Below are positions 11,278 through 11,621 of a stretch of 13,979 nt of DNA, piece by piece. The stretch lies in IMG/VR virus record IMGVR_UViG_2737471865_000007; one strand, given 5' to 3'. Origin of the DNA: a virus (taxonomy: Duplodnaviria; Heunggongvirae; Uroviricota; Caudoviricetes). Position numbers and translations under genes: made by a program. The notes below the pieces were generated by a model that did not search any database, was not told where the DNA came from, and worked only from the letters and a program-made list of their open reading frames with translations. Positions within the stretch are counted from its first letter, which is position 1. Each line of letters opens with the position of its first letter.

Positions 11278-11307
11278 TTGACAATCTTATTGCATAAATG
11301 CTATAAG
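11278..11307 (+). promoter_or_regulatory. Candidate sigma70 promoter with extended -10
   Basis: TTGACA (11278-11283), 18-nt spacer, TGcTATAAG (11299-11307). Confidence 0.45.
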
Positions 11308-11471
11308 TGATTCTGGTTTTGACACGGTAGGGGCCATTAATAATGCTTACCCCTTTGCTGTGGACTTGTTTGTACATATAGCAAGCCTAAATGATAATGA
11401 TTCCTATTGACATTCTGTTGACAGTATGATAAGATTATATACATGGTGGGGAAACAGATCTGGAGGTCAAT

Positions 11472-11621
11472 ATGGCGATCAGTGATGCAATAGCGATCAT
11501 CAACCTGGCTATACTGTGGTGCGGTGTTGCCTACATAGCCGGAGTAACTGCAATCGACAACCTTGAAGAAAAAATGATAGATAAATACAAAAAGATTGTT
11601 GACAATCTCGCAAATAGTTGA
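11472..11621 (+). CDS. Candidate small hydrophobic peptide (49 aa, one predicted transmembrane helix)
   Basis: GGAGG (11462-11466) 5 nt before the ATG; translation MAISDAIAIINLAILWCGVAYIAGVTAIDNLEEKMIDKYKKIVDNLANS; promoter-like elements upstream at 11278 and 11406-11440. Confidence 0.35.
   Translation: MAISDAIAIINLAILWCGVAYIAGVTAIDNLEEKMIDKYKKIVDNLANS

Follow-up and report, generated by a model that had tools for sequence, protein, structure and literature searches.

Between a probable origin and the replication genes of a 13,979-nt stretch of DNA (IMG/VR: IMGVR_UViG_2737471865_000007; the whole stretch is called the window here) there is an open reading frame (ORF) of 49 codons with near-consensus expression signals. 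This locus raises the question of whether the ORF is a gene, how it would be expressed next to the replication genes and what its product would do for the element that carries it. Our main reading, to which we give a probability of about one half, is that the ORF encodes a 49-residue single-span inner-membrane peptide, that it has a promoter-gene-terminator unit to itself on a plasmid-borne element resembling a phage satellite, and that the peptide has a role while the element is in the carrier state. The coordinates of the locus are collected in Table 1.

Table 1. Features of the peptide locus and its neighbourhood, in the numbering of the window.
Feature	Position	Strand	Description
Five iteron-like repeats	10528-10714		ACCTGTTGGAATTTCCyAC, partly with 23-nt spacing; repeat family D1
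Distal promoter-like module	11278-11307	+	TTGACA (11278-11283), 18-nt spacer, TGcTATAAG; read from sequence
P_pep, proximal sigma-70 promoter	11407-11435	+	TTGACA (11407-11412), 17-nt spacer, TG, TAAGAT (11430-11435)
Shine-Dalgarno GGAGGT	11462-11467	+	GGAGG core (11462-11466) 5 nt ahead of the start codon; invariant in 18/18 sequences
49-aa ORF, MAISDAIAIINLAILWCGVAYIAGVTAIDNLEEKMIDKYKKIVDNLANS	11472-11621	+	ATG start; predicted transmembrane helix about residues 6-28, amphipathic charged tail 29-49
Dual-use block, codons 32-45	11565-11606	+	Also A-rich UP-like region and -35 of P_rep
P_rep	11599-11627	+	TTGACA (11599-11604), 17-nt spacer, TG, TAAAAT (11622-11627); predicted start near 11634
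Leader hairpin 1	11636-11667	+	3' UTR of the peptide mRNA and 5' end of the P_rep transcript; predicted fold
Intrinsic terminator	11678-11711	+	10-bp G+C-rich stem, then TTTCTTTTT; terminator scan
69-aa ORF	11754-11963	+	First gene past the terminator; ORF list, annotated in relatives
Winged-helix ORF	11983-12501	+	After the 69-aa ORF
Rep-like initiator	12505-13419	+	PHROG replication-initiator matches

To compare the locus among relatives we used 17 fetched related loci together with this sequence, that is 18 sequences of which 13 are distinct at the nucleotide level. The ORF has exactly 49 codons in 18/18 sequences, with no frameshift or internal stop, and every member of seven protein clusters (97 sequences from about 80 contigs of 13.6-14.3 kb) is likewise 49 aa long. 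Over the whole ORF, 10, 7 and 23 sites vary at codon positions 1, 2 and 3 among the 18 sequences; in the core codons 5-46 these numbers are 5, 3 and 18 (chi-square p = 4.7e-4). The pN/pS of the ORF is 0.22 overall and 0.10 in the core, where the underlying pairwise counts are not phylogenetically independent. Leu31 is encoded by all four CTN codons across the sequences, and codons 5-31, which lie outside the promoter block, have 16 variable third positions as opposed to few conservative replacements. Four of the five other frames have a pN/pS of 1.1-2.2. The antisense frame which shares its third positions with the ORF has a pN/pS of 0.23, and its open stretches range from 33 to 105 codons without a common start.

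Because of the third-position bias, the low pN/pS and the fact that no alternative frame is conserved as an ORF, we regard the ORF as protein-coding. By this comparison it is a genuine conserved gene with purifying selection on the protein it encodes. The comparative signal comes from few independent substitutions, since the family is a narrow one whose members are all from E. coli and whose peptides share at least 80% identity. The small ORF that had been called from the sequence alone (hereafter the sequence-only reading) is present and conserved. The check proposed with it, a comparison of synonymous and non-synonymous changes with a frameshift counting as refutation, came out in favour of the gene: 17/17 relatives are intact and the changes are biased to third positions.

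Two antisense ORFs were considered as genes and rejected. The first, of 99 aa (11337-11636), has a pN/pS of 1.1 and contains a stop codon in one relative (L002). The second, of 74 aa (11531-11755), keeps neither its start nor its length in the relatives, and its low pN/pS is explained by the third positions it has in common with the real frame.

The proximal promoter P_pep scores 10/12 with an extended -10 and has a predicted start site near 11442. Its -35 and TGATAAGAT are invariant in 18/18 sequences, in agreement with the promoter which the sequence-only reading had placed ahead of the ORF. The top three sigma-70 matches of the 14-kb window are P_pep, the replication promoter P_rep and the promoter of the capsid operon (7786->7758, minus strand). 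Judged by their conservation, P_pep and P_rep are more than chance matches, with signals, frame and 49-codon length kept in 17 relatives.

The distal promoter-like module had been described as a near-consensus extended -10 promoter. It is present, but its -10 lacks the conserved final T, which is why the promoter scanner did not list it. Moreover, the 30-nt module is identical in 10/17 relatives and absent from the other seven (L005-L008, L013, L014, L019), so we regard it as an optional module. The GGAGG and the ATG of the proposed start are both found in this sequence, but ATG is not typical of the family, as the start codon is GTG in 16/18 sequences and ATG in 2/18. The predicted 5' UTR is about 30 nt long and unstructured, and the Shine-Dalgarno sequence is exposed in the predicted fold (5' end z = -0.17). 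For the whole peptide mRNA the fold has z = -1.18, and neither fold is more stable than that of shuffled sequence.

A promoter operator shared between the promoters, TTGACAAT with the near-palindrome ATTGACAAT, was also considered. It was rejected because the motif is not enriched (14 found compared with 17.6 expected, with one mismatch, in the whole window) and because its copy at 11418, a second TTGACA, is not conserved across the 18 sequences. The TTGACAAT motif is probably merely -35 context.

With 11/12 and an extended -10, P_rep shares the top promoter score of the window; it is conserved in 18/18 sequences, with TATAAT in L013. Its -35 and spacer lie within codons 43-49, its TG is formed by the opening bases of the TGA stop codon and its -10 follows directly after the stop, which bears out the earlier claim of a downstream promoter inside the 3' end of the ORF. 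The variable C-terminal residues 47-49 coincide with the unconstrained spacer of P_rep. Third positions vary in 1/14 of codons 32-45 compared with 16/27 of codons 5-31 (Fisher p = 0.002), and the 100-nt stretch around the dual-use block is a conservation peak (0.96) in an otherwise hypervariable replication region. On this comparative evidence, the last third (42 nt) of the ORF doubles as P_rep DNA and is under constraint as DNA. A minus-strand promoter-like site at 11602->11574 (9/12) could, however, also account for the near-invariance of this 3' block.

The intrinsic terminator, which was absent from the sequence-only reading, stands between the two promoters and the replication genes. All relatives have one, in two cases (L009/L014) as a different hairpin and T-run at the same place. 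The leader fold has z = -3.75, and in L001 a hairpin is predicted at the same place as leader hairpin 1 despite a different sequence. Used as modelled, the terminator would limit the mRNA of the peptide to about 270 nt and the leader RNA from P_rep to about 78 nt. The distance from the stop codon of the ORF to the next start codon is 132 nt. With the strong terminator behind both promoters and this gap, there is no translational coupling and most P_pep and P_rep transcripts should stop before the rep genes. Thus the coupled expression that had been proposed holds for the shared DNA (the last 42 nt) but not for translation. P_pep transcripts would run across P_rep and mostly end at the shared terminator, so that the gene would share control DNA with the replication operon without being translationally coupled to it.

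We also considered the ORF as the leader peptide of an attenuator. Its stop codon (11619-11621) is 56 nt ahead of the stem at 11678, a distance over which a ribosome cannot directly control the terminator, and no alternative pairing was evident in the folds. Furthermore, a peptide sequence conserved as a helix is unexpected for an attenuator leader peptide. We rejected a regulatory RNA pairing (repeat pairs I5 and I6) between 9645-9692 and the sequences flanking the leader terminator: its duplex energy is more favourable than that of shuffled sequence by about 2 sd only, and the complementarity is not kept in the relatives with a different leader. No Rfam match reached a gathering score, and in 11250-11800 there were only sub-threshold chance matches.

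The host element looks like an undescribed satellite plasmid with a link to rV5-like phages. It belongs to a family of plasmids of about 13-14 kb in E. coli. The closest phage relatives of its capsid protein are Vequintavirinae, it has a 52-nt non-coding element in common with at least 36 rV5-like phages, and there are recombinant phage contigs which contain satellite DNA. The recombinant phage retains only the 3' half of the ORF, fused in frame to an unrelated phage gene. The phage-satellite junction lies at a 7-nt microhomology (TAACTGC), indicating illegitimate recombination and not the boundary of a functional module. Similarity to the fusion partner, gp18 of phage 'nom', was rejected since BLASTP gives no alignment.

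The iteron-like repeats, which lie about 750 bp ahead of the peptide gene, probably mark the origin, and the iteron region varies among relatives together with the rep genes. Within this mosaic origin/rep region (identity 0-0.7) the ORF is an island of 0.91-0.96 identity, and the peptide gene is, as far as these sequences go, core to the element. For a test of positional conservation no more distant relatives of the element were available, since the members of the capsid family share at least 82% identity and all come from E. coli.

The hydrophobic stretch of the peptide comprises 23 residues, which is long enough to span a bilayer, and has a Kyte-Doolittle mean of 2.13 over residues 6-28 (2.1-2.2 over 6-28 or 7-25). 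AlphaFold2 gives a single helix for residues 2-48 with a pLDDT of 78. The product is predicted to be one continuous helix, in which an amphipathic tail of mixed charge (+4/-5) and a hydrophobic moment of 0.5 comes after the hydrophobic stretch. The one hydrophobic helix and the charged C-terminus of the sequence-only reading are both found, but the tail is mixed and not basic. A simple sum on the Hessa scale is slightly positive for the helix (+0.1 to +1.0 kcal/mol), so membrane insertion is plausible but marginal.

The peptide is probably oriented N-out/C-in and self-associating. This orientation is suggested by an N-tail without basic residues and with a charge of -1 or -2, together with four lysines in the C-terminal tail, although a tail of mixed charge is a moderate positive-inside signal only. 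The Pf3 coat protein has 44 aa and is inserted N-out/C-in in a YidC-dependent manner. It has a similar length, a short acidic N-tail, one hydrophobic helix and basic residues on the C-terminal side only; the analogy is limited to the topology, as there is no homology and no link to filamentous phages here. The heptad positions a, d and g are hydrophobic from residue 7 to residue 46, the invariant Asn11 and Gly18 are at core d positions, and the variable transmembrane residues are on the e/f outer face. Along its one continuous helix the peptide may form a parallel homo-oligomer. A lipoprotein or secreted peptide was rejected from the sequence: Trp precedes Cys17 and there is no basic n-region, hence there is no lipobox.

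Neither a word-indexed search of 5.8 billion proteins nor a full HMMER profile search of 1.84 billion representatives found a homologue outside the plasmid family, and PDB sequences as well as tblastn against phages and plasmids gave nothing outside the family. There was no significant match of the peptide to a toxin, holin or exclusion family in Pfam, PHROGs, NCBIfam and PADLOC, so the label 'toxin / holin-like / exclusion' of the sequence-only reading is not established. Two very long repetitive proteins (P0009 and P0010) were rejected as homologues; their profile matches were attributed to the low-complexity coiled-coil tail. The full-text literature search returned no description of the plasmid family or the peptide.

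In our main reading, the RNA polymerase of the host would express the peptide during the plasmid state of the element. Such a carrier-state membrane protein could interfere with a membrane step of phage infection, e.g. the entry of phages or the exclusion of competing phages and satellites. We put this role forward tentatively: it is the most likely single role, although still on the doubtful side. We would rank interference with an infection step before an effect on the lysis timing of the helper, and the latter before a post-segregational killer toxin. Superinfection-exclusion membrane proteins of the 'moron' type from prophages and plasmids, such as HK97 gp15, P22 SieA and T4 Imm, are comparable in being small inner-membrane proteins from self-contained units with host-type signals, for which expression in the carrier state is expected. 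They differ in being larger and usually variable accessory proteins, whereas the gene here is a conserved core gene whose 3' end is a replication promoter. This difference speaks against an exclusion role, as exclusion genes are usually variable accessory genes and this gene is conserved and entangled with the replication promoter. The exclusion role is also without homology support in any search run.

An unlikely alternative, though the one that survives best, is an effector of lysis timing or a holin-like effector that acts during helper infection. The peptide would accumulate in the inner membrane and alter the holin triggering or lysis inhibition of the rV5-like helper, and an altered lysis would suit the release of the satellite. 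The model for this is LidI of the Vibrio cholerae PLE satellites, an initially unannotated orphan of 66 or 121 aa with a transmembrane domain, which was detected only after phage infection (PMC7182436). Both LidI and the peptide are small transmembrane orphans of satellites of virulent myoviruses (inferred in our case), both were missed or called 'hypothetical', and neither has homologues outside its own family. LidI, with its 66/121 aa, depends on infection, whereas the 49-aa peptide has a host-type sigma-70 promoter of constitutive appearance and an overlap with the replication promoter. To fall in the same class of modulators, the element would need to be a satellite with an rV5-like helper, as we infer from the capsid kinship, the 52-nt element and the recombinants. 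One transmembrane helix followed by a highly charged tail is found in many holins but is not specific to them, and the best match to a holin family (PHROG 6384, E = 0.16, 2/8 members) is non-significant. Against this alternative, the whole-database searches gave no similarity to holins, to rV5-like phage proteins or to LidI. Among the ORFs of the element no endolysin or spanin was recognised as a partner, and the missing endolysin disfavours a classical holin. Linkage does not resemble that of a holin gene either, with no recognised lysis cassette, a host-type promoter and the rep genes as neighbours.

A more far-reaching and quite unlikely reading takes the peptide as the membrane effector of an undescribed plasmid-borne satellite, with its own capsid and tape-measure, which would depend on virulent rV5-like (Vequintavirinae) coliphages. 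The oligomerised inner-membrane peptide would control the DNA entry of incoming particles or the lysis clock of the helper. As the gene is fused to the replication promoter, the dose of the peptide would be tied to the replication control of the satellite.

We consider it very unlikely that the peptide is a type I toxin of post-segregational killing (hok/sok-like or Fst-like), which would stabilise a plasmid without partition genes. A toxin of this kind would kill plasmid-free cells at the membrane, its translation being normally blocked by an unstable RNA. Fst is a hydrophobic helix plus a charged tail, a layout which the peptide resembles in size and shape. More generally, the Hok/Sok (R1) and Fst/RNAII (pAD1) systems have hydrophobic one-helix peptides of about 30-50 residues, borne on plasmids near the replication region; the gene here adjoins the replication region too, and neither a partition gene nor a type II toxin-antitoxin gene was recognised on the plasmid. 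The minus-strand promoter-like site at 11602->11574 lies inside the invariant block, and in some variants a minus-strand T-run follows the terminator. However, there is no conserved antisense transcription unit: the site scores 9/12, has no downstream terminator and its -10 is destroyed in L002 (ATGATA->ATGACA) though the ORF is intact there. In contrast to Hok/Sok and Fst/RNAII, the locus lacks an antisense or overlapping antitoxin RNA, a long structured leader and a mok-type overlapping frame, and the short predicted 5' UTR differs from the long, folded leaders in the mRNAs of type I toxins. The N-terminus of Hok is basic whereas that of the peptide is acidic. Pfam gave no match to Hok/Gef, Ldr, TisB or Fst, and Rfam gave none to an antitoxin RNA, even at E <= 10. 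The type I toxin is disfavoured by the missing antisense signals, the short unstructured 5' UTR and the Rfam result; given the first two, a carrier-state membrane protein of the exclusion or lysis-modulating kind fits better.

Even less probable is that the locus is mainly regulatory DNA, i.e. an upstream region and promoter of the replication operon with interference by P_pep across P_rep, in which the peptide would be functionless or a leader peptide only. It would fit the last 42 nt, which hold the UP-like region and -35 of P_rep and are near-invariant even at synonymous sites, the tandem promoters feeding one terminator, and the recombinant phage which kept the 3' half of the ORF only. Yet codons 5-31 show synonymous-biased change outside the promoter block, a consensus Shine-Dalgarno sequence and a start codon are kept throughout, the stop codon is 56 nt away from the terminator stem, and the phage junction is an illegitimate recombination at TAACTGC.

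The least probable of the alternatives is that the peptide tethers or organises the replication of the element at the membrane, in analogy to p16.7 and p1, small membrane proteins of phage phi29. Its cytoplasmic coiled-coil tail would bring Rep, the winged-helix protein or the 69-aa protein to the membrane. The position of the gene between iterons and rep operon is conserved, the gene is retained across all replicon variants and the heptad pattern continues into the predicted cytoplasmic tail, but this tail has only 21 residues without DNA-binding features, and the peptide is conserved while Rep, winged-helix protein and iterons are swapped among relatives, which speaks against a specific fit between these proteins and the peptide.

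Small membrane proteins are systematically under-annotated and rarely given functions. With its conserved frame, near-consensus signals, no homologues and its place as a core gene, the peptide is a clean candidate for this group. The overlap of its coding sequence with the UP and -35 region of the promoter that follows also makes the locus a compact case of dual-use DNA. As the 3' end of the ORF overlaps the replication control, mutations made to test the peptide must sit in codons 3-31. Virulent phages of the rV5 type have been employed in work on therapy and biocontrol. Should the peptide act on phage entry, on lysis timing or on plasmid retention, it would be a simple handle on the persistence of such satellites and on their interference with the helper.

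The 49-codon ORF is a genuine small gene, conserved and well signalled. The sequence-only reading had described an ORF preceded by GGAGG, a proximal promoter and a promoter within the ORF 3' end, and all of these were found on reading the sequence of 11278-11621. Its further claim of a near-consensus extended -10 element at 11278 holds only in part: TTGACA and TGcTATAAG are there, but the conserved last T of the -10 element is missing. An intrinsic terminator downstream of the ORF is a feature absent from that description. In a scan of the 13,979-nt window, the top three sigma-70 matches were P_pep (the proximal promoter of the peptide gene), P_rep (the promoter overlapping the ORF 3' end) and the capsid-operon promoter, read from 7786 to 7758, which has the same build as the other two. 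All three carry an extended -10 element.

Coordinates of the peptide gene, its signals and related features in the window
Feature	Coordinates	Strand	Details
Distal promoter-like site	11278	+	TTGACA, 18-nt spacer, TGcTATAAG; -10 without conserved last T
P_pep	11407-11435	+	TTGACA (11407-11412), 17-nt spacer, TG, TAAGAT (11430-11435)
GGAGG	11462-11466	+	5 nt ahead of ATG
Peptide ORF	11472-11621	+	product MAISDAIAIINLAILWCGVAYIAGVTAIDNLEEKMIDKYKKIVDNLANS
P_rep	11599-11627	+	TTGACA (11599-11604), 17-nt spacer, TG, TAAAAT (11622-11627)
Intrinsic terminator	11678-11711	+	10-bp G+C-rich stem, then TTTCTTTTT; between peptide unit and next gene at 11754
Capsid-operon promoter	7758-7786	-	TTGACAAT, 17-nt spacer between hexamers, TGATACAAT; 11/12
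Window counterpart of recombinant phage contigs	11545-13023		L010 10001-11583, L011 831-1079

Loss or frameshifting of the ORF in related elements, which would have spoken against a gene, was looked for in 17 related loci and the frame is intact throughout. The ORF is annotated or called in all 17, always with 49 codons and no frameshift, and a search of 5.8 billion proteins gave seven clusters, all of 49 aa, with 97 sequences on ~80 contigs of 13.6-14.3 kb. The 13 distinct nucleotide versions of the ORF have 40 variable sites, distributed 10/7/23 over codon positions 1/2/3 and 5/3/18 in core codons 5-46 (chi-square p = 4.7e-4). All four CTN codons are in use for Leu31, and the amino acid replacements are conservative (I/V, A/V, A/T, D/E). 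The pN/pS of the peptide frame is 0.22 overall and 0.10 in the core, and that of four other frames is 1.1-2.2. The antisense frame sharing third positions with the peptide frame reaches 0.23 because of this sharing and nothing else, and its start and length are not conserved; a 99-codon antisense ORF was rejected, having a stop codon in the relative L002. GGAGGT and the P_pep hexamers are invariant in all 18 sequences, window included, with GTG as the start codon in 16 and ATG in two. The plasmid family is narrow and independent substitutions are therefore few; with this in mind, we consider it highly probable that the ORF is a real gene.

The overlap of the peptide gene with the replication promoter is unusual. 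The P_rep -35 element and spacer lie inside codons 43-49, and its TG forms bases 1-2 of the TGA stop codon. Third positions hardly vary in codons 32-45 (11565-11606; one of 14), whereas 16 of 27 do so in codons 5-31 (Fisher p = 0.002). The former block is A-rich and holds the -35 element itself and, directly upstream of it, CAAAAAGAT, which looks like a proximal UP subsite. At the C-terminus, the variable residues 47-49 fall on the spacer, and thus the same bases serve the protein tail and the promoter. Mean identity is 0-0.7 across the mosaic ori/rep region (10500-13650) but rises to 0.91-0.96 in the peptide ORF, which lies within it.

Transcription from P_rep would begin near 11634, and the predicted fold of its RNA comprises a hairpin at 11636-11667 and the terminator (z = -3.75). 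The terminator is found in all relatives; in L009 and L014 a different hairpin and T-run takes the same position, which argues that termination itself is under selection. Two RNAs are predicted, a ~270-nt peptide mRNA and a ~78-nt leader RNA, and the downstream genes for the 69-aa, winged-helix and Rep proteins would be reached by read-through transcripts only. The stop codon is separated by 56 nt from the terminator stem and by 132 nt from the following start codon, which makes classical attenuation or translational coupling unlikely. The near-consensus P_rep is followed after ~44 nt by a strong terminator, so that the ~78-nt, two-hairpin RNA (11634-11711) is expected to be abundant; it could act as a small RNA in itself or as a leader whose read-through is regulated. 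A pairing of the leader terminator flanks (11668-11728) with the conserved non-coding region 9645-9692 (16 nt at 94%, 19 nt at 84%) is lost in relatives with different leaders, is only ~2 sd better than shuffled sequence and is probably due to chance.

The gene product is very likely a membrane helix. Mean Kyte-Doolittle hydropathy is 2.1 across residues 6-28, and a simple Hessa-scale sum is slightly above zero, which makes membrane insertion plausible but marginal. AlphaFold2 predicts a single continuous helix over residues 2-48 (mean pLDDT 78), and neither a lipobox nor a signal-peptide n-region was present on reading the sequence. The five-residue N-tail has no basic residues and a charge of -1 or -2, and tail residues 29-49, whose hydrophobic moment is 0.5, include four lysines and five acidic residues; by the positive-inside rule, the charge of the N-tail and the lysine-bearing tail suggest an N-out/C-in topology. 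One heptad register accommodates the whole peptide, with A8, L15, I22, D29, I36 and V43 at a, N11, G18, V25, E32, Y39 and L46 at d, and I7, I14, Y21, I28, M35 and I42 at g. Of the seven variable transmembrane residues, four (19, 20, 26, 27) are on the e/f face, and the tail lysines are at c, e and f, the acidic residues being more widely distributed. We infer that the peptide forms a homo-oligomer of parallel helices, Asn11 and Gly18 being part of the core.

No relative of the peptide outside the plasmid family was found by a profile search of 1.84 billion representatives, in Pfam, PHROGs, NCBIfam and PADLOC, among PDB sequences, or by six-frame searches of 50,697 phage and 72,556 plasmid records. 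The peptide is an orphan within the broad class of small phage- or plasmid-encoded membrane peptides. One apparent outside relative, the 82-aa P0008, is nom_18, a gene of the rV5-like phage nom, fused to the last 24 peptide codons at a 7-nt microhomology (TAACTGC) in a recombinant phage.

An intact ORF of ~161 aa, near-identical to one annotated in a relative, re-forms when the two ends of the window are joined; the window is thus a complete circular element. It encodes a tape measure protein, a Dit-like protein, a tail-completion-like protein, a major capsid protein, an HTH_7 protein and a Rep-like initiator, and no terminase, portal or lysis gene was recognised among its genes. Close relatives are circular E. 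coli 'plasmids' of 13.2-13.7 kb, typed non-mobilisable, in a tight family in which such 'plasmids' span 13.2-14.3 kb. Their sources, spread over several continents, are humans, cattle, chicken and feral pig, and seven of 5,426 complete E. coli genomes carry the element, with no chromosomal copies. Three peptide-region matches in NZ_CP043822.1 (p3RM10740, 39,610 bp) correspond to three element copies (39,610 / 3 = ~13.2 kb), which is a trimer, a co-integrate or an assembly artefact.

Five iteron-like repeats (ACCTGTTGGAATTTCCyAC, 10528-10714, some at 23-nt spacing) are probably the replication origin. Relatives are mosaic in this region and in the rep genes (11950-13650); between the 69-aa gene and Rep, the winged-helix ORF can be kept, missing or exchanged for another (172, 121, 128 or 164 aa). 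Two long stretches without a convincing ORF, 3570-4120 and 9350-10300 (0.99-1.00 and 0.92-0.99 identity to six relatives), rank among the most conserved parts of the element and gave no Rfam matches or tRNA predictions. Directly after a terminator at 9202-9222, three TATTTAaCCCCTATTTA copies phased at 11 and 22 nt (9225-9274) may form a protein-binding array. A 195-aa ORF at 8594-9181 begins with a signal-peptide-like sequence (MNIKTIIAALTIAFSANTAA) and matches no family; six relatives, whose version of the gene measures 522-711 nt, show no similarity to its 3' part (~9000-9150), and the position may be one for variable accessory or cargo genes.

In the phage collection, the sole relatives of the capsid protein are Vequintavirinae (rV5-like) capsid proteins (~25% identity, 97% of length). 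The non-coding 52 nt at 7976-8027 match 38 phage records, all rV5-like, most of which have an unannotated stretch of 88-90% identity to them; these 52 nt are a candidate helper-phage recognition site for packaging or regulation. Three short hairpins are possible in them (CACCC/GGGTG, GGTGAC/GTCACC, CTGGC/GCCAG); just upstream (7940-7975) lies the tRNA T-arm-like GTTCGAATCC, near which no tRNA was predicted. Two public read sets (Logan ERR13318355 and ERR13318739) contain an rV5-like phage, its contigs 98.6% identical to nom, with ~7 kb of phage DNA, from the nom_18 3' end through part of nom_25, swapped for 1.4 kb of element DNA holding P_rep, the terminator, the 69-aa and winged-helix genes and the N-terminal part of Rep. 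On the left, the junction falls within the peptide ORF, at the TAACTGC microhomology, and the contigs (L010 and L011) may represent a natural or experimental phage-satellite recombinant. From the capsid relatives, the shared 52 nt and the recombinant phage, we infer that the element is a plasmid-borne satellite of rV5-like phages.

A host-type promoter, an exposed ribosome-binding site and a terminator of its own point to expression of the peptide while the element is carried as a plasmid. Our main reading, tentative at a probability of about 0.3, is a membrane protein of the carrier state that acts on the entry of phages or satellites (exclusion type). Among satellites of virulent phages, the nearest functional precedent is LidI of the Vibrio cholerae PLE, an orphan membrane protein of 66 or 121 aa at first overlooked by annotation and produced only after infection (PMC7182436), whereas the signals of the peptide gene look constitutive. 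A modulator of lysis timing is unlikely, and a post-segregational toxin quite unlikely. For the latter, a type I system is disfavoured: a conserved antisense unit is absent, the sole minus-strand promoter candidate (9/12) is not followed by a terminator and is disrupted in L002, the peptide mRNA leader is short and unstructured, and there is no toxin-family or Rfam match. That the region is purely regulatory DNA is improbable, a replication tether is very improbable, and some other role takes the remaining probability. A classical holin is disfavoured because a lysis partner is absent.

Activity of the capsid-operon promoter in the plasmid state would call for a repressor of the capsid genes, and the HTH_7 protein (8276-8536) is a candidate for this role. 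No published description of the element was found in the literature, and the host element is a more surprising result than the peptide gene: an apparently undescribed satellite plasmid tied to rV5-like phages.
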